A DNA stretch of 64,000 nucleotides, from positions 96,001-160,000 of the IMG/VR virus record IMGVR_UViG_3300022745_000628. The stretch is one strand, 5' to 3'. The first letter of the stretch is position 1; every line of letters begins with the position of its first letter. Under the pieces are notes generated by a model. It saw nothing but the letters and a program-made list of their open reading frames with translations, searched no databases and was not told the DNA's origin. The stretch comes from a virus. Shown piece by piece: positions 8,724 through 58,433 of the stretch. The position numbers were made by a program, and so were the translations under genes.

Positions 8724-10190
8724 ATGGCCACAGAATTAGTTTATTTTCCGTATGCCGGAAATGCGTCGTTAACCGCCACTATTACGTTGCGCGGTTCTGG
8801 CGACATTATAGAAACGGCTACGGCAGTCGCGCCAACAACTTTTAATCTAGGTGGCACGACTACGTGGCAAGCAGCCACCTTTTCAGGTGCCAATTTCGGA
8901 CCGTTTGCGTTACATGTATTTGACGGCGCAACCGAAATAGCCACATATGATATTGGAATGCTAGGCCCGCGAGCGCTAGCAACACCTATTCAAAATACTG
9001 GCAATATCAATGCTTTTGAACAAGTTCTGGTAGACCATCTGTTTTTTGGCGAGACTCGTGTCTGGTGGCGATTGGCCAGTGATTTTCACGACGCCGGTCC
9101 GTACGTTTATAAGCTACAGGCTAGTTACGGAGCCCATCAGAACGCAATAGATTGGGTGGATGTTTCTGTTCCGCACAGCGAAATCAACTTTATCCCGTAC
9201 GTAAATATGCGAGAGCGTACAGGTAAAAATATGCTTACGCATTATCGCGTAATGCTTTATACGCCCACCGGTACATATTTGTCGAATCCTACGCCGGTTT
9301 GGGGAAACCTAAACAGCATAGATTTCAAATATGCCCAAGAATTAACTAGAAAAGAGCGGATCCGGCTGCGATCTGTATCTGTCCCTGGTTATTTACTGCG
9401 GCGCTTACGTTATGGCACTATTAGCACCGTGGGCACGGATCTTTTAACAAGAGAAGTTGTACGTACCGATATATCCACAACCTGGGGTACTCCATTTGAT
9501 ATTGGGTATCATCCGCCGATCCCTATGGATATAGACCCGACATACGGACCTAATACTGAAAATAGAGGTGGCGGAGATATCCAGACAAATAATACGCTTA
9601 TTCGGCAAATGAATGCCAGGGTATTAGCACAGCCAGATGTGGCGTTTGAAGACGTGTGGGTAAATGCTCAAACTGACGAACGCTGGCTGATTCAGGTAGT
9701 TAAGCCAGTGGCGGCGGTGCGCGGTATTCCGATTGTGCGCGAATTAGCTATGAATTTGATACCGCGTACGCACGTTATTTACAAAATACCGGTCGACGGT
9801 TTTTCGTTAAATACCCGTACAACTGACGAAGAATCCACAGCGCAGGTAGGCGACGGATGCAATCCGGTAAATCACGATTTCCCTACAACAGGTGCTATGC
9901 TATATACAGCCGACGATTGCTGCGGTATTTCAGGAGCCACTGTGACTATTTACACTCAAACCGATTATTCTGCCGAAAACACTGGCGCCGACTTTGTAGT
10001 GGCTTCTACAACCACTACTACCGGCGGGCAATGGACAGAAACAGTAAATTTGTCGGAAGGGGAGTACGTCGTAGTATTTGAAAAGCCTGGGTTTTTTGGC
10101 CCAGATACTCAAACAATTACAGTCACAGACCCGCCGGATCCGGATGCCGGCGAAACTATAGGCGAATTCACCAGTACTTTTGAGTTTTAA
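8724..10190 (+). CDS. putative head-closure/neck protein with a C-terminal prealbumin-like (carboxypeptidase regulatory-like) domain
   Basis: 488 aa. C-terminal ISGATVTIY...TTTTTGGQW...LSEGEYVVVFEKPGF pattern; located between the connector-like and terminator-like genes. Confidence 0.45.
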   Translation: MATELVYFPYAGNASLTATITLRGSGDIIETATAVAPTTFNLGGTTTWQAATFSGANFGPFALHVFDGATEIATYDIGMLGPRALATPIQNTGNINAFEQVLVDHLFFGETRVWWRLASDFHDAGPYVYKLQASYGAHQNAIDWVDVSVPHSEINFIPYVNMRERTGKNMLTHYRVMLYTPTGTYLSNPTPVWGNLNSIDFKYAQELTRKERIRLRSVSVPGYLLRRLRYGTISTVGTDLLTREVVRTDISTTWGTPFDIGYHPPIPMDIDPTYGPNTENRGGGDIQTNNTLIRQMNARVLAQPDVAFEDVWVNAQTDERWLIQVVKPVAAVRGIPIVRELAMNLIPRTHVIYKIPVDGFSLNTRTTDEESTAQVGDGCNPVNHDFPTTGAMLYTADDCCGISGATVTIYTQTDYSAENTGADFVVASTTTTTGGQWTETVNLSEGEYVVVFEKPGFFGPDTQTITVTDPPDPDAGETIGEFTSTFEF

Positions 10191-11062: not shown

Positions 11063-11099
11063 ATTTTGTTCTAATTTAAGTAGACCACCAAAACCTCAT

Positions 11100-11117
11100 T
11101 TCGCCACGGAGGGCGAG
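11100..11117 (+). promoter_or_regulatory. CsrA/RsmA-type binding hairpin in the sheath gene leader
   Basis: TCGCC-ACGGAG-GGCGA: a 5-bp stem with an ANGGAN hexaloop, 8 nt before ATG 11125, overlapping both possible SD sequences. Confidence 0.55.
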
Positions 11118-11124
11118 GCTTCAA

Positions 11125-13962
11125 ATGGCTTATATCAAACCGCAAGTTCGGGTTTTTCAGGAATTCACGACCTCGCCTAGTATTGGCGACAATATTCGGC
11201 GGGCGCACATTTCAGGCCCGAATGCATTGCTGCACCGATTCTCCAAAGCTGCTGAGAAGCCGCTAATTGGATTGGGCAGCTATGTCAACGACACTGATAC
11301 CGCTTATTTCTGGCCTGCTAAGCAAGGCGGATCGCTTGTAGATCTCGACAGTGTTAAGCTTTTCGTCGAAAACGGATTGCTTAAATACTTCGAAGATTTG
11401 ATCGGCGAAACGTCTGGTGACCTGGGTACGATTACTCCAGTCTCTGGGCGCGCTAACTACATCACGCACGATACGGTTAACTGGCGTACAGCCAACAGCT
11501 ATTCCCGTAGCTCCTTGCTATTGGACCGAGACGTCAAGATCGGCGACGTGGCATATATTCGTGGTATCGAAGATCCAGAAGGGGATTGCATCGAGCACAC
11601 GCTTTGGACCACGGTGGCGGGGTTTTCAGCTAATACGGTCGCAGCTGTAGTAGGCAGTGCTTACTCTGATGCCGCTAACGCCGAAGATTCAAGCTATGAC
11701 ATTGATTCGACTTTTACAGCTGGTCAAGCGAACTGCGTACTTGTTGCTAATATCGACGGGGAATCTTACGATGGATTGCCAAGCGGTAACATCAGTGAAA
11801 CATACACGATTGAAGTAATCAAGTCTGCCGTCGCTGGATGTCAAGCTGCTCGGTTCCGCGTCACCTCTGCAAGCGGTAACGACGATGTATCGGAAGTAAC
11901 ACCAGCGGATTTCGGCGACGCTACTACCATCGGCACACGCGGACTGACCGTGACTTTCGACCTTAGCGAAGGCGGCGGTTGCGGCGATGACGCTATAGCC
12001 GCTGGTCTGCCAGCAGATCAGTTCATTGTCGGACAGACATGGGAAGTTTCTATTACGCAGCAAGGCTATGCAGCCTGCGCAACTGCAAACAACACTTATA
12101 CCGGATCTTTCGACGACACCTACATTATCACCGTTGTTAAAGGTGGTAAGTGGGCAGACGGGCCTAAGATCTCGGTTCGAACCGCTCGTGGACTAGATAG
12201 CTCTGGTCCTACCAGTGTGACCGGCAATGCTGTATCTGTACCAGTTGGCTCGTACGGCCTCACAGCATCGTTTGCTAAGTGCTCGGGCGGTGGCGGATCT
12301 TTGAGCGGTCTACGTTATGGCGATATTTTCTACATCGACGTGGTATCTAGCTCGTCCGGACCAGTTCGAACACTGATCTTGCGAGACAACTTGCCATCCG
12401 GTTTGCTTGCCGCTGACGACCTCGATTTGAAGTTGTACATTCAAAAAACCTTTGAAATCAACCCACATCGTACCGAAAGCGCTCCGCTAACCAACTACGA
12501 CACGTCCGCTAGCACGATCACCGTCAACAGCGGTATTACTGCTTATGATTCGACTTGGACGTTGAACGGCGAAGAACAAGTGCTCACGCTGGAATCTGGT
12601 TGCACATTGGCAAACAGCCGGCTATGCGGACAATTGTTTGCAGAGTATCGAGAATTCGTTGACGACCTAACCAACGACATTCGAATTGCTGTTACGGCAG
12701 CCGATTTGGATGACATTCCTGGTCCGCTCGAGCCAAGCAATCCATTGAAGTGGGGCGTATACAAGGCGTTGATCAATACCAGCTCGTCTGGCGTTGCTTA
12801 CACGGCTGTCGCTGACCCTTCGGATCCTGATTCTTGGCAAACTGTTTTGGACGCCGCTGAAGGCCGTCCGGACATTTACAACTTTGTACCGCTTACCTTC
12901 GATACCACGGTTCAAAACCTTTTCGTAGCACAGGCTGTTAACGAATCGGCACCGGAAGTTGGAAACTGGAAGGGCGTCATCCTTTCCGGACAGTACAAGG
13001 AAACCGCAAAGGTTGTAGGTGGCGACGATGTTTTGGCGACGATTGCCGAAAACATTGGAACAACCGAAACCGACTACACCCTTATGACTATCTCCAACGC
13101 TACGTTGCTAACTGACGACGTACGATCTGGGGACAGTGTTCGGTTCTTGTACGACACAGACGGTTACGGTGGAGAAATCTACACGACATATGTTGTACAA
13201 AGCGTTTTGTCAGAAACCAGCCTTATTCTCGTAGCCGGTCCAGACGTAGCCGTCTCCGTGCCACAAAAGGTAGAAATCTGGCACACACTTACCAAGAGCG
13301 AGATCGCTACCGACCTAGTCGAGCAAGCACAATCTTTCGCAAATCGTCGGGTGGTTTTCACTGCTCCGGACATTGTCTACGAAGCTGGCCTGCCAACCCC
13401 AGGCTACTTTGTATGCTGCGCCGTCGGCGGATTGATCTCGTCTGTCCAACCTCATCAAGGTTTGACGCACGTACAGCTATCCGGTTTGGGCGGAATTGTG
13501 CAACGCACGCGTGACTACTTCAAGGCTAGCTTGCTAGACCAACTGTCAGCTGGTGGCGTATGGACTGTCACAGCCGATCGCGCTGGTACAATTTTCACCC
13601 GCCACGCTGTAACAACCGACACTACGGATCTAAAAAATCGCGAAGAAATGATTCGCCGAAACGCGGATTCGATTTCCTACGATTTTGTCGAGTTGCTAAA
13701 GCCGTATATCGGTCGAACCAACGCGACGCCGACTGTGCTTACCAAGCTTGATTACGAAATCAACAAGAAGCTGGACAGCTACACTTCGGTTATCGTCAGC
13801 CAAGACTTGGGCCCACAACTTATTTCCGGAGCTATCGCTGTCGACAGCACCGGCGCCAAGTTGCTCCGAATCCATCCGCTCGCAGCAGATAGAATCGAAA
13901 TTGTCCTTAACGTGTCGCTACCGGCACCGGGCAACAATATCGATCTTCACATTGTTGCTTAA
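11125..13962 (+). CDS. contractile tail sheath protein (945 aa, with inserted domains)
   Basis: N-terminal YIKPQVRVFQEF; C-terminal sheath-like segment (LSAGGVWTV...TRHAVTTD...REEMIRRNADSISY...IEIVLNVSLPAPGNNIDLHIV); followed by a tube-sized gene. Confidence 0.9.
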   Translation: MAYIKPQVRVFQEFTTSPSIGDNIRRAHISGPNALLHRFSKAAEKPLIGLGSYVNDTDTAYFWPAKQGGSLVDLDSVKLFVENGLLKYFEDLIGETSGDLGTITPVSGRANYITHDTVNWRTANSYSRSSLLLDRDVKIGDVAYIRGIEDPEGDCIEHTLWTTVAGFSANTVAAVVGSAYSDAANAEDSSYDIDSTFTAGQANCVLVANIDGESYDGLPSGNISETYTIEVIKSAVAGCQAARFRVTSASGNDDVSEVTPADFGDATTIGTRGLTVTFDLSEGGGCGDDAIAAGLPADQFIVGQTWEVSITQQGYAACATANNTYTGSFDDTYIITVVKGGKWADGPKISVRTARGLDSSGPTSVTGNAVSVPVGSYGLTASFAKCSGGGGSLSGLRYGDIFYIDVVSSSSGPVRTLILRDNLPSGLLAADDLDLKLYIQKTFEINPHRTESAPLTNYDTSASTITVNSGITAYDSTWTLNGEEQVLTLESGCTLANSRLCGQLFAEYREFVDDLTNDIRIAVTAADLDDIPGPLEPSNPLKWGVYKALINTSSSGVAYTAVADPSDPDSWQTVLDAAEGRPDIYNFVPLTFDTTVQNLFVAQAVNESAPEVGNWKGVILSGQYKETAKVVGGDDVLATIAENIGTTETDYTLMTISNATLLTDDVRSGDSVRFLYDTDGYGGEIYTTYVVQSVLSETSLILVAGPDVAVSVPQKVEIWHTLTKSEIATDLVEQAQSFANRRVVFTAPDIVYEAGLPTPGYFVCCAVGGLISSVQPHQGLTHVQLSGLGGIVQRTRDYFKASLLDQLSAGGVWTVTADRAGTIFTRHAVTTDTTDLKNREEMIRRNADSISYDFVELLKPYIGRTNATPTVLTKLDYEINKKLDSYTSVIVSQDLGPQLISGAIAVDSTGAKLLRIHPLAADRIEIVLNVSLPAPGNNIDLHIVA

Positions 13963-13964
13963 TT

Positions 13965-13984
13965 TCAATCACAAGGACGTTTGA
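13965..13984 (+). promoter_or_regulatory. CsrA consensus site on the tail tube RBS
   Basis: ACAAGGACGT (13971-13980) is a 10/10 match to ACANGGANGU, within TCAA-tc-AC-[AAGGAC]-GT-TTGA. The GGA is the SD core of ATG 13988. Confidence 0.55.
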
Positions 13985-13987
13985 CAC

Positions 13988-14548
13988 ATGGCCGATACTT
14001 CAGTTTTTAATGCTAACCAGGTATATCGCGGTGCGTTTAACATCGCGAATAGCGTGGTAACGTTCGCCGGACAAGCGGCAGATCACCTTGTCCAAAACAT
14101 TCAATACAACTTTACGCAGCAAATCTCCATGATTTACGAATTGGGCTCGCCCAATGTGTATTTCAATGGCGGACGCGCTAGCGGTAATGCTGCATTGAAT
14201 CGTATCTTGGTGGCGCTAACCAAAGACAAACTTTTTGAGAGCTTCAACGATGTGTGTAGTCCAAACGATATTCATATTACACAGGCGTCCGGGTGTACCA
14301 CAAAGCCGTCGGGTACCGGCGGCACGGTTAGTCCTACAAACACGGTCAATCCTTTTATAAATACCCGCAGCGAGTTGGTTTTGAAATCTGCTGTGTTGTC
14401 AAACATCGGCGGATCGCAAGACAACCAATCAGCTGTGTTTACTGAGCAGATGAGTTTCTTGTTTTTGAACATGACGCGTTCAGTAGGAGCGGGCACTGGT
14501 CAGACCACTACACCTGCCGCTACTACTCCAACTACGGTTGTCGCTTAA
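13988..14548 (+). CDS. tail tube protein
   Basis: 186 aa directly after the sheath; tube-like motif LVQNIQYNFTQQISMIYELGS..VYF..GR..G...LNRI; Thr/Pro-rich C-terminal extension. Confidence 0.8.
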   Translation: MADTSVFNANQVYRGAFNIANSVVTFAGQAADHLVQNIQYNFTQQISMIYELGSPNVYFNGGRASGNAALNRILVALTKDKLFESFNDVCSPNDIHITQASGCTTKPSGTGGTVSPTNTVNPFINTRSELVLKSAVLSNIGGSQDNQSAVFTEQMSFLFLNMTRSVGAGTGQTTTPAATTPTTVVA

Positions 14549-14578: not shown

Positions 14579-14608
14579 AAAAGCCGCGGGATCCTCCGCG
14601 GCTTTTTT
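14579..14608 (+). terminator. intrinsic terminator after the tail tube gene
   Basis: AAAAGCCGCGG-gatcct-CCGCGGCTTTTTT: perfect stem plus T-run; the flanking A-tract could make it bidirectional. Confidence 0.9.
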
Positions 14609-22165: not shown

Positions 22166-22654
22166 ATGCCAGCAGTATTTTCAGATAGAACTGGGCAGGT
22201 ATCGGTAGTCACCGGCAACGGCATTGCACCGGCTGCTTTGACCATTAGTACCGGCACGCTGCAATTAAGTTCTAACCCTGTTATCGTCAATAACACGATC
22301 GTGACCAGCATATCGGTAAACGAGAACGTAAACGCACAATTCGCTTTGTCATTAAACAAAAGCGTACACGCGTACATATTTGGCGATCAAGTCGGACAAA
22401 TGGAAATAGGCGGTATGGCTTTTGGAAGCATGTGTTTCAAAGGTACGGTCCCGCAGCCTAAATCCGGGTTGCTGCGCATACAGGAGATATATCATGCAAA
22501 TAAGATGAGCAGTCGCGCACAGCCACTACTTATCGATATTAGCGGTATTAGTTACAGCTGCTTTTTAACGGGCGGCCGGTTCGGGTTCGTAGATCCGCAA
22601 AACAATGTAGCACAATGGTCATTTTCACTTGCTAGTGTAAAAACACAATCTTAG
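22166..22654 (+). CDS. tube-like baseplate/tube-initiator protein
   Basis: 162 aa after the tape measure; IVTSISVNENVNAQFALSL...HAYIFGDQVGQMEIGG resembles the tube-fold pattern of 13988-14548. Confidence 0.55.
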   Translation: MPAVFSDRTGQVSVVTGNGIAPAALTISTGTLQLSSNPVIVNNTIVTSISVNENVNAQFALSLNKSVHAYIFGDQVGQMEIGGMAFGSMCFKGTVPQPKSGLLRIQEIYHANKMSSRAQPLLIDISGISYSCFLTGGRFGFVDPQNNVAQWSFSLASVKTQS

Positions 22655-22663
22655 GAGATTCCG

Positions 22664-23425
22664 ATGATTAATCACGTTAGAACGTTATTGATCAACCGAA
22701 AGGTTGCGGATCTACCTAGATACGGGTCGGTAGACGAGTTTGTCCCTACAGACTACAAACCGGCGCCAGAAACCGCGGTTATACGCGCACTGCGTAACAA
22801 CATATTCGGTAGTGACCCGGATCTAGATTTTGTGAATTATCGAGCGCATATGTGTATGCGGTTATTACACGGCAGCCCGTGGGCGGCTTACATTACGCAT
22901 CGCGATTCGCGGATTACTTACGACATAAAAAACCAGCAGTTCTTCAACGTATTTAACACCACGGTTACTACAACATCTGATTTAACTGTCGGAGTTACAG
23001 GTAAATTTTGGGCTGACGAAATAACTGGCCGCGTATCTCGTCGCTGGACTATAGCATTTAATGGCACAGATGTTACCGTAGTGGACACGTTTACTAATAC
23101 AACTCAAACACAAGGGCGTACCGACGTTATAAAGCTGGTAAACAGTAATTTGTATTTCGCGTTGCCAAGCACAGCGTCCGAAGGTTTTTACGCAGAGGTA
23201 ATCGCTCGAGCCAAACCTGTGCGATCTATTACGGATATTATCGATCAAATTAGTCCGAATATCGCGCAAGCTGCGGCTAGCGAGATATTTAGCCATGTAG
23301 CTGATTCTGAAATTAGACAATTGTTCGCGTTATGGAACTACGAACCTTTATTACTATGTAAGTACGCAGCATTGTTACTAGGGTTGGCCAGACACACGGA
23401 ATTGTTAAATGAGCAAAACGCTTGA
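22664..23425 (+). CDS. hypothetical baseplate-region protein
   Basis: 253-aa ORF with an AGGAG SD, contiguous with its neighbours. Confidence 0.7.
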   Translation: MINHVRTLLINRKVADLPRYGSVDEFVPTDYKPAPETAVIRALRNNIFGSDPDLDFVNYRAHMCMRLLHGSPWAAYITHRDSRITYDIKNQQFFNVFNTTVTTTSDLTVGVTGKFWADEITGRVSRRWTIAFNGTDVTVVDTFTNTTQTQGRTDVIKLVNSNLYFALPSTASEGFYAEVIARAKPVRSITDIIDQISPNIAQAAASEIFSHVADSEIRQLFALWNYEPLLLCKYAALLLGLARHTELLNEQNA

Positions 23426-30559: not shown

Positions 30560-32404
30560 ATGTACACAAAATTTCCAAATGCCGTCCCGCAAATAACTTA
30601 CGGTGGCAATGTTCGCTCTGACACAATCAATAAGATTGCAAACGAGCTTGCTAGCCGCACGAATTATTTATTGGATCAACTTAACGAAGTAACCGCGGGT
30701 AGCGCGTTAGTTATCACTAACGAACCATGCACATCAGAAGTCACTGCGTTTAACGCCGTGTACTGGAATGCTGACGATCGGCTATTTGAGCCGGCATTAT
30801 CACAAATTGTGACGACCACTGGCGGAGAATACGTAGTAGGTCCGTCGGCACTGGCAATAGGCATAACCACCGTAAAAAATGGCGTAAATCTCTGCGATAT
30901 CACGATTGGCGGGCGTATAGCTATGACCGCTGATCAAGTAGCGATACTTATAAATAACGAAACGCCTGTAAGCGGGCTGCTGTATCTTTCGGCGACTATC
31001 CCAGGTAAATTGACGACATCAAAGCCGTTAGCCGCTATTCCAGTTGGCGTACTGCTCACTCCGTCGAATTCTTGTCGAACTACCTATCAAGTTATTCTCG
31101 GGGCTGGCTGTCTGGCCGGAGACATTAACAAAACGTCAACACACGAGTACCGCTTGTACGCCGTACCGGCTGGCGATCACGTACCGCCGGATGTAGGCAA
31201 CCCGCACACTATTTTGAATCCGGATTCAGCCAGCCACGGATGGCTGCCAGCCGATGACGCAATATTTAACGGGGCAGCGCCAGACGGGGCAGTATTCGGG
31301 TACAACATCTCGCAAGACCCTACTTTGGCAAATATATGGCCACCGAGCGGTAAACAAGTATTGGTAGAGTTTTATTCGTCCAGCGACATCGGAATTGTCG
31401 GACTAAAAGAAGTCCCGACGCATTTTTATATTGTCGACGACACCACTATTTGGTGGACTACGGATTGTTATAGCAAAGTGCCTTGGGATTATCTGCTTAA
31501 CACGGTAGATCCGCCAGATCCGCCAGAAGACTGCGCTATACCAGCGCCAACAGAGATGATCTTACGATTTGATCGCTCGTTTCTGGATAACGCTACACGA
31601 GTAGTTACGAAGTTATCCGGCACTGACGACAAATTGATTACGTTTGTAAACGCCGCAGGACAAGAAGCTAGCCGCGGAGACTTGAAGGCCAAGTTCAATG
31701 CGGATATCGCAATCACAAATTCAGCGGCCACTGGCTCTACCGCAATTAAATCCGTAGGGCCTGGCTTTACGTTTACATCCGGTAAGGTAGTGGAGGGCGT
31801 GCGAAGTTTGTCTAGCACGTTAATAGTTACAGGCACAGAAAGTCGGCTGATCGATCCAGGTCAAGCGGAGTCGGACTCAAACTACCGTATTTACCAGGGT
31901 ATCGTATCTGTTGAAAGCACACCTAGCGCTTTCGGACTGGACATATCGCCTACTCTGGTGCGCCTAGGCGACAGCTTGCAACGTGCATACAACGACATCA
32001 ACTATATCGGCTTTCCTAGCGGCATAGCGTCGTCGGTAACCTGCCGATTTGATATTCCTAACGGCGATCCAGGCTCAAAGAACTTAGTTCCTTATGTTGT
32101 TATGTTTGGACGCGCCGCAGGTCCGTTTTCGGCTATGTCTGCAAAGTATTACGTAATCAAAGCGCCGCCTGCGCCGGGCGGAGCTCAGATTGTGACCGGC
32201 TCTACGACAAGCACAACTTTCAATGTGGTTACACCATCTACGGGATTAGATGCAAATGCCGTTATTAAAGTAACGGCCGGGGCTATCCCTGTTTATGGCG
32301 GTGACACCGTGTTTGTAACATTCAGTCGAGCTGCCGATGCTTCGCCGAGTTTTTCGGCTGACATCGGATTTATTCGAATCGGAGCAGCAGTAAGGGCTAG
32401 ATAA
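30560..32404 (+). CDS. tail/baseplate appendage protein
   Basis: 614 aa; contains LLYLSATIPGKLTTSKP...PVG, a motif seen in phage fibre/appendage proteins. Confidence 0.55.
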   Translation: MYTKFPNAVPQITYGGNVRSDTINKIANELASRTNYLLDQLNEVTAGSALVITNEPCTSEVTAFNAVYWNADDRLFEPALSQIVTTTGGEYVVGPSALAIGITTVKNGVNLCDITIGGRIAMTADQVAILINNETPVSGLLYLSATIPGKLTTSKPLAAIPVGVLLTPSNSCRTTYQVILGAGCLAGDINKTSTHEYRLYAVPAGDHVPPDVGNPHTILNPDSASHGWLPADDAIFNGAAPDGAVFGYNISQDPTLANIWPPSGKQVLVEFYSSSDIGIVGLKEVPTHFYIVDDTTIWWTTDCYSKVPWDYLLNTVDPPDPPEDCAIPAPTEMILRFDRSFLDNATRVVTKLSGTDDKLITFVNAAGQEASRGDLKAKFNADIAITNSAATGSTAIKSVGPGFTFTSGKVVEGVRSLSSTLIVTGTESRLIDPGQAESDSNYRIYQGIVSVESTPSAFGLDISPTLVRLGDSLQRAYNDINYIGFPSGIASSVTCRFDIPNGDPGSKNLVPYVVMFGRAAGPFSAMSAKYYVIKAPPAPGGAQIVTGSTTSTTFNVVTPSTGLDANAVIKVTAGAIPVYGGDTVFVTFSRAADASPSFSADIGFIRIGAAVRAR

Positions 32405-41656: not shown

Positions 41657-42322
41657 GTGCATCCATTTCGTACCGCATTGACCAGTGTCGATTCTTTTGC
41701 AACTACTTTACTTGTAGTTGCAGTGCAAACATACGGCACCGAATGCCTCACTTGGACGCCAGATACCCTGTTAATAGAACTACAAGAAGACTTCAATTGT
41801 GTAGTTCCGCAAGAGAATCTAGATAAATTAATGGCCGCGGTGACTATCGTGACCACCGATCGATTTAGAGCATCTTTGCCAGATTTTATTGACATTTGTA
41901 ATGCTTTATCCGGCACTCCGCTGGATACTGCTGTGTTTGACCCGGCGGACACATACGAAATAGCCTGGGGAATGACAGAAGCAGAATTGTTGTGGCCGCA
42001 GCATGATACGGAGATCAATCCGCAAATAATCGGGTATATCGAAAACGTGCTGGCTGACGACAGCTTTATTAGAGCGCCAAAAATATTGCAACCGTTTATA
42101 CCCGACTTCGACAAGTCGGTTAATTTTGAAAACTTTGGCGATGCAGAAGATGCCGACATATACTCCGGCATGTTTCAAAACCAGCAAGAACGCGTACAAG
42201 ATGTAGACGCTGCAGTCGCTGGTAATATCGAAAAATTGAAATTACAGTTAACTAGCTTAAATCTCGAAAATGGCACTGGAGAAGACATTCTTCAGAAACT
42301 CTTCAAAGAAATGGCTGAATGA
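41657..42322 (+). CDS. acidic hypothetical protein
   Basis: GTG at 41657 follows an AAGGGGG SD (the ORF track starts at TTG 41639); helical and Asp/Glu-rich. Confidence 0.75.
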   Translation: MHPFRTALTSVDSFATTLLVVAVQTYGTECLTWTPDTLLIELQEDFNCVVPQENLDKLMAAVTIVTTDRFRASLPDFIDICNALSGTPLDTAVFDPADTYEIAWGMTEAELLWPQHDTEINPQIIGYIENVLADDSFIRAPKILQPFIPDFDKSVNFENFGDAEDADIYSGMFQNQQERVQDVDAAVAGNIEKLKLQLTSLNLENGTGEDILQKLFKEMAE

Positions 42323-46249: not shown

Positions 46250-47092
46250 ATGTTTGGTTTTGGAAAAACAAAGCAAGACATATTAGAAACTAATGCCACA
46301 GGCGTACAAATTAATACGTCGATCCGTAACATGTTAGAACCGCTGCTAGCGCCTGACCAAGTGCATTACACTGATATGCAGCTGTTAAGAACTGCAGCTG
46401 TTGCCAGATTAAATTACATGCAGCAGGAATTGGCGATACGCAGTAGTTTAGCTAAGGCGCGTATTCAAGAACAGCGTGGGAAGCTTGGCCGTAATATGCT
46501 CACGAATGAGTACGGAAAAGAGTACGCTAAGACGGTTGTAAAACCATTAGCAAATCAACCGTCTGCGGCTACTCGACAAACTAACCCTGTGCTCACTTTT
46601 TTGTGGACCAGTGTTAGTCATTGGAGATGTAGCGACGCTACCGGGCAAATAGTTGACTTTGAAATAACAAAGATGACGGATGAACATCTTTGGACCACTA
46701 TAAATTGGTTAGTCTCAAATACTGTGTATTTGGCTGCATGTGCTAAGACGGCGCAAACCGGCAAATCTACACCTATCAGTAATTTAGAAGCTGCTACATG
46801 GTTGGCTGCGCAACCCGTCGTGATCGCGATGGTCTTCGAAGCGTTAAAGCGCCAGCTTACATTCTCGGATGCAACTGCTTTGTTCATAAGGATCCATATA
46901 AAAACGGACCGACAAGTGAATACAGCACCGCCGTGGAAACAGCCGTTCAGTAAGAACGCATTACCGGACTTAAAGGATAAGTTGGAAAAAACGGTACATG
47001 CGGAAAAAATTCGACAAAAACTCGGGACAAGAAACCGAGCGATCGCACTGGAAGATACAAGTGGTTCCGGGGAACACGAAACTCGGCCCTAA
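46250..47092 (+). CDS. hypothetical protein
   Basis: 280-aa ORF starting 1 nt after the upstream stop. Confidence 0.7.
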   Translation: MFGFGKTKQDILETNATGVQINTSIRNMLEPLLAPDQVHYTDMQLLRTAAVARLNYMQQELAIRSSLAKARIQEQRGKLGRNMLTNEYGKEYAKTVVKPLANQPSAATRQTNPVLTFLWTSVSHWRCSDATGQIVDFEITKMTDEHLWTTINWLVSNTVYLAACAKTAQTGKSTPISNLEAATWLAAQPVVIAMVFEALKRQLTFSDATALFIRIHIKTDRQVNTAPPWKQPFSKNALPDLKDKLEKTVHAEKIRQKLGTRNRAIALEDTSGSGEHETRP

Positions 47093-47747
47093 GATATTTT
47101 CATGGTCAGTAACCCCTGGTGCAAAACATAGTTGCCCAAAAGAAACTGAGACCTGCCGAGCATTATGTTACGCTAAGCACGGCTTCTTCCTCATGCGGAG
47201 TACCGCTGAGGCACATAAACGTAATCTCACGATGAGCAAACGCGCTACATTTGCTCCAAAGATGATCGCGTATTTGAAAACCAGCCGGGTGACTTGTGTG
47301 CGTATACACGCCGCAGGCGATTTTTACGACGTACACTACATACGAAAATGGCACCAAATAATGAGTGCCTTGCCAAATATCCAATTTTACGCGTATACCC
47401 GATCTTGGCAGGATGCTGTGATGTTGCGGAGTTTGGTGCGCTTAACACAGCTGCCAAACTTTAAACTGTGGTATTCATGTGATAGGAGTTCCGGCCGTCC
47501 GCCGGTAACCTATCGCGTCAATTGGGCATATCTTGCGGTGGACGATCTGGATAAGCCGGATTACGCCTGCGACTTAATATTTCGAGCCCGTAGAAATACA
47601 GTGCATAAGCGAATAAATGGTGTGTTAGTCTGTCCGGTTGAAAACGGGGTAGCCGCCAAATCAAAAATTACATGTACCACATGCGGAGTATGCTGGGACA
47701 ATAAAAAATTGCATGCCCTTGAACGAAAAATGAGTTTCGAGTGTTAG
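46998..47747 (+). CDS. Gp88-like protein (radical-SAM-related Cys cluster)
   Basis: GNTKLG...WSVTPG..SCP.....C...CYA; VRIHAAGDFYD..YIRKW; NIQFYAYTRSW. The true start may be GTG 47061. Confidence 0.8.
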   Translation: MRKKFDKNSGQETERSHWKIQVVPGNTKLGPKIFSWSVTPGAKHSCPKETETCRALCYAKHGFFLMRSTAEAHKRNLTMSKRATFAPKMIAYLKTSRVTCVRIHAAGDFYDVHYIRKWHQIMSALPNIQFYAYTRSWQDAVMLRSLVRLTQLPNFKLWYSCDRSSGRPPVTYRVNWAYLAVDDLDKPDYACDLIFRARRNTVHKRINGVLVCPVENGVAAKSKITCTTCGVCWDNKKLHALERKMSFEC

Positions 47748-47986
47748 TGCTTAATCGCAAACAGAACGAGTCGGTTTGTATATGGTTATCGCGTCAACAT
47801 TTGTTGGCGCTATTAGCCGATCCGGCGAACGAATTTTTGATTACCGTTAAGGTAACTAAAATTGCGCCAACTTCAGTGAAGTTAGGATTCACGTCCCCAC
47901 AAGAAGTAGTGATTCTACGAGAAGAGGTCAGCCAGCGACAGCAAGCTGATCGAATTAATTCGTTACAGACGAATACTACCGCTTAG
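47741..47986 (+). CDS. csrA: carbon storage regulator CsrA/RsmA homologue with a 16-aa insertion
   Basis: MLVLNRKQNESVCI ... ITVKVTKI...VKLGFTSPQEVVILREEV aligns with E. coli CsrA MLILTRRVGETLMI...VTVTVLGV...VRIGVNAPKEVSVHREEI; the RNA-binding Arg of (H/L)REE is retained. Confidence 0.9.
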   Translation: MLVLNRKQNESVCIWLSRQHLLALLADPANEFLITVKVTKIAPTSVKLGFTSPQEVVILREEVSQRQQADRINSLQTNTTA

Positions 47987-50258: not shown

Positions 50259-52142
50259 TTAAGTCGACGCTGCTTGCAGCTCATCCGTCCAAACAGTGTC
50301 GTAATCGCCCATTTCTTCGTATTGAATGTCGTTTAAACGCATATGCTGGATAGCGTCTGAAAAATCAGGCCATGCGCGGTTCATGTGCCAGAGCGCGGCA
50401 CATCCGATATTGACAGCTTGCGCAAAGTCGTCCGTAAGCATCGGGTTGCGCGTAATCGTGTAAATGTCGCTACCGCTTCGCGACTCGAGCTTGTTTTCAA
50501 TAAGCGCCAAGAAATCGCGAATTAAGCCGGCATTTTCAGTGTTTACATAGTCATATTTGAAAAATTTGACTTTTTTGTACCTAATCGCGTTACACAGATT
50601 CAATAAAGACCGTGTTTTATCCAAGCGATATCGATCGCGAGCGTGTACTGTGCTGGCTGGTACGTGGCGGATAATGTTGCCTGCCGCCGATCCCACATAT
50701 TCAATAGGAATAATGTGCTGCAGCTTTAAACCAGTACTTACCATGACCGTTTCACGGATAGTTCCAGCCCCAGTGTAATCGTGCGCAATATGCGAACAAT
50801 TAAACGCCTGGTACCAGTGCTGCAACTCTTTAGCTTCTAACACGTGATTTTGCGATTGCACCATCCGCTTTGCCCAGATCACGTGTATTTCGCCGGAAGG
50901 TAAATAGCCTAGCACGGCGATAACTGTAAACGACGTTTGAGACTCTCCGCCTCCGCCCCAATCCACAGCCATAATTTTCATATGGTAATCGCGCAGGTTA
51001 TTTACCATTTTCAAATCCGGCCTTCGCGAGTTATCGAACGGAAGTATGGCCGCACTTCTCAATTCTGTCTCGGTAACTAGCTTTTGTCCGGCGTCGATAG
51101 ACTCGCCTAACACTTCGTTGCAGAATTTTGCGCGCGTCATGTTCCCAGCGCCATTACGCTTAGCCAGCAACAAACTCCATTTGTCCGGATTAGCGTAGTG
51201 CAGCGGCAAGATAACTTGCGGTATGTGGTACCCTGCAAACTCCCAGCGTCGCTCGGGAAAGCGGTGGACCCATCTACCAGTACGAGAGTACAGAAAGTAC
51301 TTGCAACGCGCGCAGCGCAAGCCAGGGCGCTCTTCTGAGATAAATTCGGAGTATTCTCCAAACATGTTATCTAAATCAAATTCAAGCGACGGAATGTTCC
51401 ATTTGTGGCAGCGCGTACATTTGATGACCCATTCGGCTTGAGAACTGTCTCGCCATTTAGCTTCGATAGGATTATCGAGTGTCTTGGGTGTACCGCCGTA
51501 TCCAACCGTTGGAATCGGATCTTGAGCTGCCGACATTGTTTCCATGATGATCGGAAGCAGGTCGATATCAAGATCCTGCAGCTCGTCCAGCAAACAGCGG
51601 TATACGGATAGCCCGCGGATACGATCCGCGTTATTAGATGCGAAACTAAAGAACATCGTAGAGCCGTTGCGAAAGCTACGCTGCAACACGGAGTTCTCTG
51701 TGGATGTGTTGTACCATATCGCTTTAACCGGCGAATTATCGATCAGTGGTCGCACGTAATTGCTAGAAAATCGCCGTATTTGCTCATAAAGCGGCGTAAC
51801 GTGAAGCGTTTTGTAATGAGGTATTGCCGCGGACATCATAACACTGGTAGCCGCCATAGACTGTGATTTAGACAACTGGCGCCCAGCTTTGAGTAACCAA
51901 CTTTTTGGTTGCGCCAGTCGAAAGATAGGCGTGAACGGAAAGTAGTTTTTAAGGCTGTACGGCTTCCCGTTGAGGCTCAAGCACAGTGGCAACAAAACTT
52001 CAAAACTAGGGAGCGCCTTTAATGTGGCGAGCTCCTGAATTTGTTGAAGTCTATCTGTCAATCGCTGACTCTTGGCCGAGTCAGGTTTAGCCCATTCGGA
52101 AACAATGCTATTGATGCGTGATTCTCTTGTAGCAATTTGCAT
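50259..52142 (-). CDS. terL: terminase large subunit (GpA-like)
   Basis: KPYSL..YFPF; Walker A-like KAGRQLSKS; Walker B RGLSVYRCLLDELQD; GYGGTPKT; C-x2-C Zn motifs; nuclease-domain MAVDWGGGG; terminal DDFAQAVN. Confidence 0.9.
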   Translation of the reverse strand: MQIATRESRINSIVSEWAKPDSAKSQRLTDRLQQIQELATLKALPSFEVLLPLCLSLNGKPYSLKNYFPFTPIFRLAQPKSWLLKAGRQLSKSQSMAATSVMMSAAIPHYKTLHVTPLYEQIRRFSSNYVRPLIDNSPVKAIWYNTSTENSVLQRSFRNGSTMFFSFASNNADRIRGLSVYRCLLDELQDLDIDLLPIIMETMSAAQDPIPTVGYGGTPKTLDNPIEAKWRDSSQAEWVIKCTRCHKWNIPSLEFDLDNMFGEYSEFISEERPGLRCARCKYFLYSRTGRWVHRFPERRWEFAGYHIPQVILPLHYANPDKWSLLLAKRNGAGNMTRAKFCNEVLGESIDAGQKLVTETELRSAAILPFDNSRRPDLKMVNNLRDYHMKIMAVDWGGGGESQTSFTVIAVLGYLPSGEIHVIWAKRMVQSQNHVLEAKELQHWYQAFNCSHIAHDYTGAGTIRETVMVSTGLKLQHIIPIEYVGSAAGNIIRHVPASTVHARDRYRLDKTRSLLNLCNAIRYKKVKFFKYDYVNTENAGLIRDFLALIENKLESRSGSDIYTITRNPMLTDDFAQAVNIGCAALWHMNRAWPDFSDAIQHMRLNDIQYEEMGDYDTVWTDELQAAST

Positions 52143-57311: not shown

Positions 57312-58433
57312 ATGAAGAAAATTGCATATGTAGCCGCAGATTTGCATTTGCGGCCGACGGTTTGGGCTCATCATCCGACAATGCGCGGAGATACATACGA
57401 TAGTTTCAAGCAAGTTATTCAGATCGTGCTGAACGATCCGGATAAGTTACCGCTTGTGCTGTTAGGCGACATATTCGATAAAAGTCGTCCAGATTCGGAA
57501 TCCGTACAGGTTTATTTAAGTGGTGCGGAACAGCTACACGCTGCAAACATACCGCTGTACTATATTCAAGGTAATCACGATTTAGCCGATCCTGCCTGGC
57601 CTGCGTTAGCGTCAAACGCTATTTCTTTGCATAACAATTGTGTAACGATTAATGGCAAACGATTTGTCGGGCTGGACTATCAACGCGCTGATCAACTCGA
57701 GACGGCTGTTCAAAACCTAGACCAGTTCAGGCCGTTTGACTATGTATGTGTGCATCAAGCCTGGCAAGAATTGCAAGGCGTTGGCAGCACACACGGTGCC
57801 GTAACAATGTTTAAGTCTGGTGATACGGTGCTCAGTGGCGATTTACATATTCGCATGACGCGTGCAATTAACAATGTGGTTGCGCATTCTCCCGGTTCTA
57901 CGAGTATGCAGTCGATTACCGAAGCGCGAGATAAGTTCGTAACGCTGCTGTGTGATTCGACGGATCCAGATATCCAATTTAGCAGCGTGCCATTAAAAAC
58001 AAGAGGCTTGCTGCAACAGACAATACTTACGGTTAGCGGGTTAGCCACGACTATTCAGCAAATCAAAGCGTTTGCTAAATCGGCCGGGCCAAATAAACCG
58101 CTGGTACACGTGAAATATTCTCCGAACGTCACGGATGCGTTTTCAAAGCTAACCGGAGAGTGTGGCGAGCTCGCCTACTTGTTTTTAAATCAATTAGCAG
58201 ATATCGACGGCAATAAAATTGTAAACATAGATCCGACATCCGCGGACTTGACTGTAAATTTGCGAACAGCCGTGACACTGCTGGCGCAAAACCATTCTGA
58301 ATTTGAAGCCGTTATAGCAGCTAGTCTGTTAGACGCCACTAACGTAGTCACTACCATTGAAAAATTGAAAGAGGATTTTCATGCACTTGCGAAAGCTGGC
58401 TCTGCAAAACTACTGCAACCACAAAAAACGTGA
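57312..58433 (+). CDS. SbcD/Mre11-like (T4 gp47-like) metallophosphoesterase nuclease
   Basis: ADLHL, LLGDIFD, IQGNHD, CVHQ, SGDLHI, SPGS motifs. Confidence 0.92.
   Translation: MKKIAYVAADLHLRPTVWAHHPTMRGDTYDSFKQVIQIVLNDPDKLPLVLLGDIFDKSRPDSESVQVYLSGAEQLHAANIPLYYIQGNHDLADPAWPALASNAISLHNNCVTINGKRFVGLDYQRADQLETAVQNLDQFRPFDYVCVHQAWQELQGVGSTHGAVTMFKSGDTVLSGDLHIRMTRAINNVVAHSPGSTSMQSITEARDKFVTLLCDSTDPDIQFSSVPLKTRGLLQQTILTVSGLATTIQQIKAFAKSAGPNKPLVHVKYSPNVTDAFSKLTGECGELAYLFLNQLADIDGNKIVNIDPTSADLTVNLRTAVTLLAQNHSEFEAVIAASLLDATNVVTTIEKLKEDFHALAKAGSAKLLQPQKT

Follow-up and report, generated by a model that had tools for sequence, protein, structure and literature searches.

Could a phage that encodes a homologue of the translational regulator CsrA also carry targets for it on its own messages? 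The question is raised by a 64,000-nucleotide stretch of viral DNA (hereafter the window), which comprises bases 96001-160000 of one 193,796-bp IMG/VR virus record (IMGVR_UViG_3300022745_000628; CheckV completeness 93%). A first-pass annotation had proposed that CsrA-consensus sites on the leaders of the tail sheath and tail tube genes, together with a phage csrA gene, form a switch for tail assembly. Here, we find that the RNA element on the sheath leader is real and conserved, and that the same hexaloop hairpin stands on the leaders of the major capsid gene and of the 187-aa gene preceding it, both ~10 kb upstream of the window. Judging from these sequences, the phage probably controls the synthesis of its virion proteins at the level of translation. 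In the following, SD stands for Shine-Dalgarno sequence and ORF for open reading frame.

Hairpins on the leaders of virion genes

The features in question are listed below; positions without a prefix are those of the window, and genome positions those of the whole record.

11099..11118, + strand: sheath-leader hairpin, composed of TCGCC (11101-11105), the hexaloop ACGGAG (11106-11111) and GGCGA (11112-11116)
11125..13962, + strand: tail sheath gene (945 aa; phrog_279 tail sheath, E 7.3e-11)
13971..13980, + strand: ACAAGGACGT on the SD of the presumed tube gene (ATG at 13988), agreeing with the CsrA consensus in linear sequence
13988..14548, + strand: presumed tail tube gene (186 aa), named from its position after the sheath
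47741..47986, + strand: csrA homologue (81 aa, GTG start; Pfam CsrA PF02599, phrog_9500 CsrA-like regulator)
Before the ORF at genome 85516: hairpin of the 187-aa gene leader, GAGC/GCTC stem, ACGGAG loop
Before the 308-aa ORF at genome 86197: hairpin of the capsid leader, CTTC/GAAG stem, ACGGAG loop
L001:10152-10166 (genome 86152-86166), 9.8 kb before the window: second GGA hairpin of the capsid leader, 8-bp stem, pentaloop AGGAC

The sequence TCGCC-ACGGAG-GGCGA had been read correctly at 11101-11116, ending 9 nt ahead of the sheath ATG at 11125, and it does fold as a hairpin: the minimum free energy structure of the leader is this hexaloop hairpin with the stem extended to 7 bp (-8.7 kcal/mol). 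The sheath SD, GGAGG, is formed by loop positions 3-6 together with the closing G and lies 12 nt before the ATG. No second structured GGA site was seen in this leader, and a role of the hairpin as a terminator was ruled out because no T run follows it.

The major capsid leader, which lies outside the window and had been named as the key test, carries the same ACGGAG hexaloop hairpin; the 308-aa ORF behind it matches the PHROG major head protein (phrog_2522). In the whole 194 kb, 13 ANGGAN hexaloops occur on stems of at least four Watson-Crick pairs. Those located 8-25 nt before gene starts number 4, against 0.57 expected from shuffles of the 5' flanks (p 0.003), so that the proposed genome-wide comparison of leaders with shuffled controls yields enrichment. 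Among the 36 leader hexaloop hairpins of any sequence in this genome, ACGGAG is the sole recurring loop (3 times).

The high-affinity Csr/Rsm target, as described for RsmE, is an ANGGAX hexaloop directly on a C-G-closed stem; its first loop adenine is read by the RsmE backbone, and A(N)GGAX pentaloops are further targets (Duss et al., 2014; PMC4005645). The leaders of the sheath, 187-aa and capsid genes all fold into an ANGGAX hexaloop that stands directly on its stem. The loop, ACGGAG closed by C-G, is identical in the three, the stems differ, and the hairpins lie 17-20 nt ahead of the starts; the loop plus its closing G gives GGAGG 10-13 nt before the ATG, overlapping the SD. In the capsid leader, the AGGAC pentaloop hairpin is found 21 nt upstream of the SD hexaloop hairpin, and tandem GGA hairpins likewise occur in the capsid leaders of the related loci L010 and L031/L032.

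The first-pass annotation had also held that the other GGA-containing SDs it inspected in the window do not fit the consensus, which is correct; yet two of the genes concerned, at 22664 and 58381, have the SD in the hexaloop of a hairpin whose loop is off consensus.

22647..22660, + strand: AATC-TTAGGA-GATT, before the gene at 22664
58366..58381, + strand: TGAAA-GAGGAT-TTTCA, with an A-U closing pair, before the gene at 58381

The fifth CANGGANG close to a start, at genome 192313, reads AGGC-ACGGAA-GCCT followed by a T run, and was set aside as terminator-like and not an operator. Several further hairpins are recorded here as observations in their own right. Two lie inside genes with no start codon near and may be chance occurrences or internal sites, namely TGAT-ACGGAG-ATCA at 42004-42017 (gene 41657-42322) and CAGCC-ACGGAT-GGCTG at 31231-31246 (gene 30560-32404). 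Outside the window, CCGCA-AAGGAT-TGCGG at L002:3384-3399 (genome 53384-53399) falls on the SD of a 190-aa gene lacking known function, where RNAfold favours a 6-bp stem with the tetraloop AGGA. In addition, two tandem GAGGC-AGGGAT-GCCTC hairpins, 57 nt apart, lie at L001 ~8820-8900 (genome 84820-84900) inside a 417-aa gene just upstream of the head genes, and a similar AGGGAT hairpin is present in the capsid leader of L010.

The tube site fared differently. Its sequence at 13971-13980 had been given correctly, but it does not stand as a CsrA target and was ruled out as a member of the set. The tube leader forms no stable structure (-0.8 kcal/mol, a value matched by 142 of 200 shuffles), and rough arithmetic from the 43 leader ANGGAN motifs gives ~2.4 leader matches to CANGGANG by chance, so that the site is within chance. 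The nearest relatives have TAAGGAACGT in one case and ACAAGGTAAA, without the GGA, in the other (GGA to GGT in a close relative), and a hairpin on the tube leader is present in occasional distant relatives only. The site is judged to be an ordinary AAGGA SD. Furthermore, the description as a switch for tail assembly is too narrow, because the hairpins precede head genes, the capsid gene and its neighbour, as well as the sheath gene.

Conservation, covariation and the occurrence of csrA

Metagenomic relatives of the capsid protein number more than 200, and 80 IMG/VR loci were fetched. In 55 of the 80 capsid leaders, a C-G-closed A(C/U)GGAG hexaloop is found on widely different stems, such as GGAAC/GTTCC, GCAC/GTGC, GATC/GATC, CACAC/GTGTG and GAAGAC/GTCTTT, and the family consensus of the leader, ACAYGGAGGT, agrees in full with the CsrA consensus on which the first-pass annotation relied. 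Loss of the hairpins in csrA-bearing relatives, which had been named as evidence that would speak against the proposal, is seen for the capsid hairpin in several of them, although the majority of capsid leaders keep theirs. Covariation, which had been suggested as a check, is present. In an alignment of 61 distinct capsid leaders, hairpin-less ones included, that was anchored solely on the GGAG of the SD, a 5-bp helix is paired in 73% of cells (53% in shuffles) and reaches a covariation of 0.448 as compared with 0.156 in shuffles (0/500); each of the five pairs shows changes in both of its strands, and scores are far lower when the register is slid. The C-G closing pair is found in all three of the leader hairpins described above for this genome and in 51 of the 61 capsid leaders. 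Since the stems covary while the loop stays constant, a DNA-level motif such as a promoter was rejected as an explanation.

Also in the capsid leaders, an element of the form CTAACTAA / TTAAC is conserved in one large clade (L040-L083), where it precedes the hairpin by 5-20 nt. It is possibly a late promoter of the phage-encoded RNA polymerase, in which case the hairpin would sit at the very 5' end of the mRNA.

Sheath homologues were found in 29 of 30 records of related phages. In the two closest available relatives (tube proteins 54% and 50% identical), the 14-nt core of the sheath hairpin, CGCC-ACGGAG-GGCG, is fully kept while the remaining leader cannot be aligned, and the sheath leaders of many more distant relatives have A(C/U)GGAG hairpins on GGC/GCC stems. 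The proposal of a CsrA-consensus hairpin on the sheath leader is borne out; the hairpin is above chance. At the same time, the hairpins are evolutionarily labile; for example, a relative with 84% capsid identity has GCGGAG, with G at loop position 1, on the neighbour gene. The hairpins are restricted to ribosome-binding sites (RBSs) of mainly structural genes, and the genes bearing them in relatives map to the structural block of the genome under study in 24 of 27 cases versus 322 of 527 overall (p 0.001).

Do the hairpins track csrA? Ten relatives, of which four lack and six bear csrA, were fetched whole, and the gene calling and leader scan were repeated on them. The counts of leader hairpins are as follows, with G000 denoting the genome under study.

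G034, csrA present: 13 observed, 1.02 expected
G025, csrA present: 10 observed, 0.79 expected
G014, csrA present: 9 observed, 1.13 expected
G015, csrA present: 9 observed, 1.76 expected
G000, csrA present: 4 observed, 0.57 expected
G009, csrA present: 3 observed, 0.76 expected
G013, csrA present: 2 observed, 0.99 expected
G030, csrA absent: 0 observed, 1.00 expected
G042, csrA absent: 0 observed, 0.78 expected
G027, csrA absent: 2 observed, 0.51 expected
G038, csrA absent: 5 observed, 0.77 expected

The two groups differ with a Mann-Whitney p of 0.03, which is nominal and uncorrected for phylogeny. No hidden divergent CsrA was detected in G038, G030 or G042 with a family-specific hidden Markov model (HMM) run with filters off, the last 8-11 kb of G030 and G042 being covered by the Pfam CsrA model search only, and G027 gave only a 15-bit match to the family-specific HMM. 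In Vibrio phage D181 and Salmonella phage Arash, two cultured and distantly related phages with the capsid and sheath in common, CsrA is absent and the SDs are plain.

The loop geometry was also tabulated without presupposing the motif, over every loop size and register of GGA-containing leader hairpins. In the CsrA-bearing genomes, the register with two nucleotides before and one after the GGA occurs 58 times versus ~15 for each of the others, the AGGAG pentaloop coming next, whereas no register is enriched in the leaders of the CsrA-less genomes. Of these 58 hairpins, 36 have the C-G closing pair. Loop position 1 is A in 50 of the 58 (86%), compared with 440 of 1086 (41%) at unstructured leader GGAs (p 3e-12), and position 2 is more often C or U than in plain SDs. 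The adenine at position 1 favours CsrA as the reader, because pairing of the SD needs no such base and RsmE reads it.

The phage CsrA and the surrounding genes

The assignment of the ORF at 47741-47986 as a CsrA homologue is confirmed by 47.6 bits on PF02599 (cut-off 27) over profile positions 1-52 of 53, with 39.5 bits in a six-frame search. The gene overlaps by 7 nt the stop of a GP88-family gene at 46998-47747 (PF17338, 116 bits). CsrA proteins are compact chains of ~55-75 aa that form an interleaved beta-sheet homodimer, and mutagenesis work has found the beta-1 residues L2, L4 and R6 together with R44 (E. coli numbering) important for RNA contact. In the phage protein, MLVLNRK and VVILREEV align with MLILTRR and VSVHREEI of E. 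coli CsrA (1Y00/2BTI), respectively, so that L2, L4, R6 and the arginine of V-x-V-h-R-E-E are kept, Thr5 is replaced by Asn and R7 by K, and ~19 aa are inserted between the equivalents of beta-1 and beta-2.

A word-based search for homologues retrieved nothing but the query CsrA, and an exhaustive HMMER search gave only 10 weak matches at E<=1e-3 among 1.8 billion representatives; therefore, the csrA genes of the family were sought with the Pfam CsrA model. Of the related records, a first 4 of 5 and then 29 of 39 gave a match; among the 28 with a completeness of 90% or more, 24 have the gene, which makes csrA near-core in this phage family. Some relatives, namely G004 (L086/L089), G013, G014, G023 and G024, have two or three CsrA-family genes, and G004 has one 184-aa frame with two CsrA-domain matches in tandem. 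The csrA gene of the genome under study has no GGA site of its own. In L086, L090, L095 and L114, the SD of csrA lies in an A-U-closed AAGGAG or AGGAG loop on ATCGA/TCGAT, TCGA/TCGA or TGGA/TCCA stems, which suggests that csrA may be autoregulated in several relatives.

The + strand carries nearly all genes of the record. The 186-aa presumed tube protein has no Pfam or PHROG match, and its gene stays directly after the sheath gene in relatives. Between it and the following 901-aa gene lies one further element.

14579..14606, + strand: terminator-like hairpin, an 11-bp G+C-rich stem with the loop GATCCT, then a T run

At the same place, L250 and L252 have stem-loops of unrelated sequence followed by T runs. 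The hairpin is likely an intrinsic terminator, making sheath and tube a separate, highly expressed unit.

The phage has no close DNA-level relatives in INPHARED, scanning IMG/VR for exact peptides of the sheath and of CsrA gave no matches, and in the capsid tree this genome is an outlying long-branch member of the family, with no more than 57% identity between its capsid and those of the IMG/VR set. Two further observations concern other parts of the record. Among the few minus-strand genes is one for a terminase large-subunit ATPase (PF05876) at 50259-52142, 2.3 kb downstream of csrA. Outside the window, repeated small genes at genome 37296, 38007 and 38721 start with ATGTGG and have near-identical leaders, AATAAACAAGCTC.

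Candidate readings and known systems

On the sequence evidence, the reading that we favour, at about an even chance, is that the sheath, capsid and 187-aa-gene hairpins are CsrA-type translational operators. The operator set would then cover the most abundant virion mRNAs, namely the sheath, major capsid and 187-aa head-module messages, with the tube not included. A dimer of the phage CsrA, possibly along with host CsrA, would bind the hexaloop holding the SD and compete with the 30S subunit, and in the capsid leader one dimer could bridge the hexaloop and the upstream AGGAC pentaloop. Translation of the highest-copy virion proteins would thereby be repressed, being delayed or balanced until the late mRNA outnumbers the regulator, which would give the circuit a role in timing or stoichiometry.

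A number of points weigh against this reading. What a phage would gain from repressing its major virion proteins is a matter of conjecture. GGAGG, that is, the loop GGAG plus the closing G, is also a strong SD by itself, and consequently part of the consensus match comes free. Because the phage CsrA is very divergent, has the ~19-aa insertion and has Asn in place of Thr5, which contacts the closing G in RsmE, its RNA specificity may differ from the canonical one. As to a sponge RNA, no Rfam match at the gathering threshold was found in 102 kb (the window plus L001-L003). The association with csrA is imperfect in both directions: CsrA-bearing G013 shows no enrichment, and the complete CsrA-less genome G038 retains its five leader hairpins, the capsid one included. 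Several CsrA-bearing lineages are without the capsid hairpin, which changes 8 times on the capsid tree, and the hairpins of the capsid and the neighbour gene are both missing from a relative whose capsid is 74% identical; two of the CsrA-bearing genomes that have lost the capsid hairpin, G015 and G014, have hairpins on other genes. A tree-aware test of co-occurrence has no power, because csrA status changes only twice on the capsid tree (2 losses, giving 2 independent pairs). It should also be noted that the genes of this record and its relatives were called with a simple home-made dicodon plus SD caller.

Could the hairpins work without CsrA? Such a hairpin would display the SD in its loop or stabilise the 5' end of the mRNA, securing efficient initiation on abundant virion mRNAs and avoiding trapping in long-range structure, while csrA serves to reprogramme the host. 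This agrees with the near-perfect SD (GGAGG) in the loop, with the position of the sites on the most highly expressed genes, with the hairpins kept in G038 and the repeated loss of the capsid hairpin in CsrA-bearing lineages, and with the hairpins in the window that hold an SD in a non-CsrA loop (TTAGGA, GAGGAT). However, many loop sizes and registers would then be expected, whereas only GGA at positions 3-5 of a hexaloop is enriched, and in CsrA-bearing genomes only; the preference for A at loop position 1 and the frequent C or U at position 2, where the SD consensus favours A, likewise speak against it, and CsrA-less relatives and outgroups use plain SDs for the same genes. On balance, we consider this explanation, which is the main rival, rather unlikely.

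The hairpins might also be bound by host CsrA alone, for control or stabilisation of late mRNA or as a sponge, with the phage CsrA acting on host targets or competing. The hairpins of G038, which has no phage csrA, would be accounted for, as would the canonical type of the hairpins beside so divergent a phage protein, and CsrA homologues of mobile elements, e.g. RsmQ, are thought to act on host regulons (comment in PMC11879866). Against this, the G+C content of the family spans 43-63% and hence suggests many hosts, the hairpin geometry tracks the phage csrA in 9 of 11 genomes and the two outgroups, and some phage csrA genes have AAGGAG hexaloop hairpins on their SD, as would be expected for an autoregulated circuit owned by the phage. 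We regard binding by host CsrA alone as improbable.

Still less credence is given to another phage RNA-binding protein or nuclease, such as a GGAG endoribonuclease like T4 RegB or a repressor like RegA, to which the CsrA likeness would be coincidental. A constant loop on variable stems does imply a sequence-specific reader, and most genes of this phage are without known function. However, no candidate was identified, the match to a CsrA target is complete in loop size, register, first adenine and closing pair, and a CsrA gene is present. Moreover, T4 RegB acts on early mRNAs and not on late ones. Finally, chance is a scarcely credible origin of the sheath hairpin and the likely one of the tube site.

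A wider reading may be put forward, although tentatively and as somewhat doubtful: a family of uncultured phages of ~190-235 kb would run an autonomous Csr circuit, in which the phage CsrA reads ANGGAN operators on the capsid, sheath and other virion genes and on some csrA genes, and the flood of late mRNA acts as a sponge, setting a threshold or timer for particle synthesis. Phage csrA genes are commonly annotated, and candidate targets are supplied here. At 14-20 nt, these hairpins on the leaders of the sheath, capsid and neighbour genes are short and open to synthesis, and the CsrA-less relatives with plain SDs and the off-consensus tube site offer natural controls, so that the question is directly testable in vitro. 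Were the reading true, this would be the first virus with a global bacterial translational regulator and its operators on its own structural genes, and a post-transcriptional layer would be added to late-gene control in large phages.

CsrA homologues carried by mobile elements have been described before, such as the plasmid-borne RsmQ (PMC9928087), the 'carbon storage regulator' genes of F116-like Pseudomonas phages and gp28 of PTXU04 (PMC11879866). A CsrA-family gene is present in 83 INPHARED phage records, mostly of F116-like Pseudomonas phages and Vibrio phages. Knock-down of PTXU04 gp28 leads to smaller plaques, and the authors of that study state that what CsrA does during the life cycle of a phage had not been put to the test (PMC11879866). 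Unlike what is considered here, these homologues are proposed to act on host regulons. In the literature searched, no paper was found that describes CsrA operators on phage structural genes, nor any with the phrases 'phage-encoded CsrA', 'phage CsrA' or 'viral CsrA'.

The closest likeness is to the repression of hcnA by RsmE and of glgC by CsrA (RsmE-RNA structures 2JPP and the 2MF0 series). A PF02599 protein is common to both, the target there is likewise an SD-overlapping ANGGAX hexaloop on a C-G-closed stem (PMC4005645), and the 21-nt spacing of the two GGA hairpins in the capsid leader may be such as a dimer can bridge. Unlike in those systems, regulator and candidate targets are both on a lytic-type phage of ~194 kb and the candidate targets are virion structural genes; the protein is highly divergent with its insertion, and a partial search found no CsrB/RsmZ-like sponge or FliW-like antagonist.

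Among phage regulators, T4 RegA and the coat proteins of MS2 and Qbeta (on the replicase hairpin) offer a parallel, since in these cases a phage protein binds an RBS-overlapping RNA element of phage mRNA; with the MS2 coat protein, this element is a small hairpin that includes the initiation region. Their proteins and RNA motifs are unrelated to the CsrA system, and they repress early or replicase genes, whereas the candidate operators described here stand on genes for major virion proteins.

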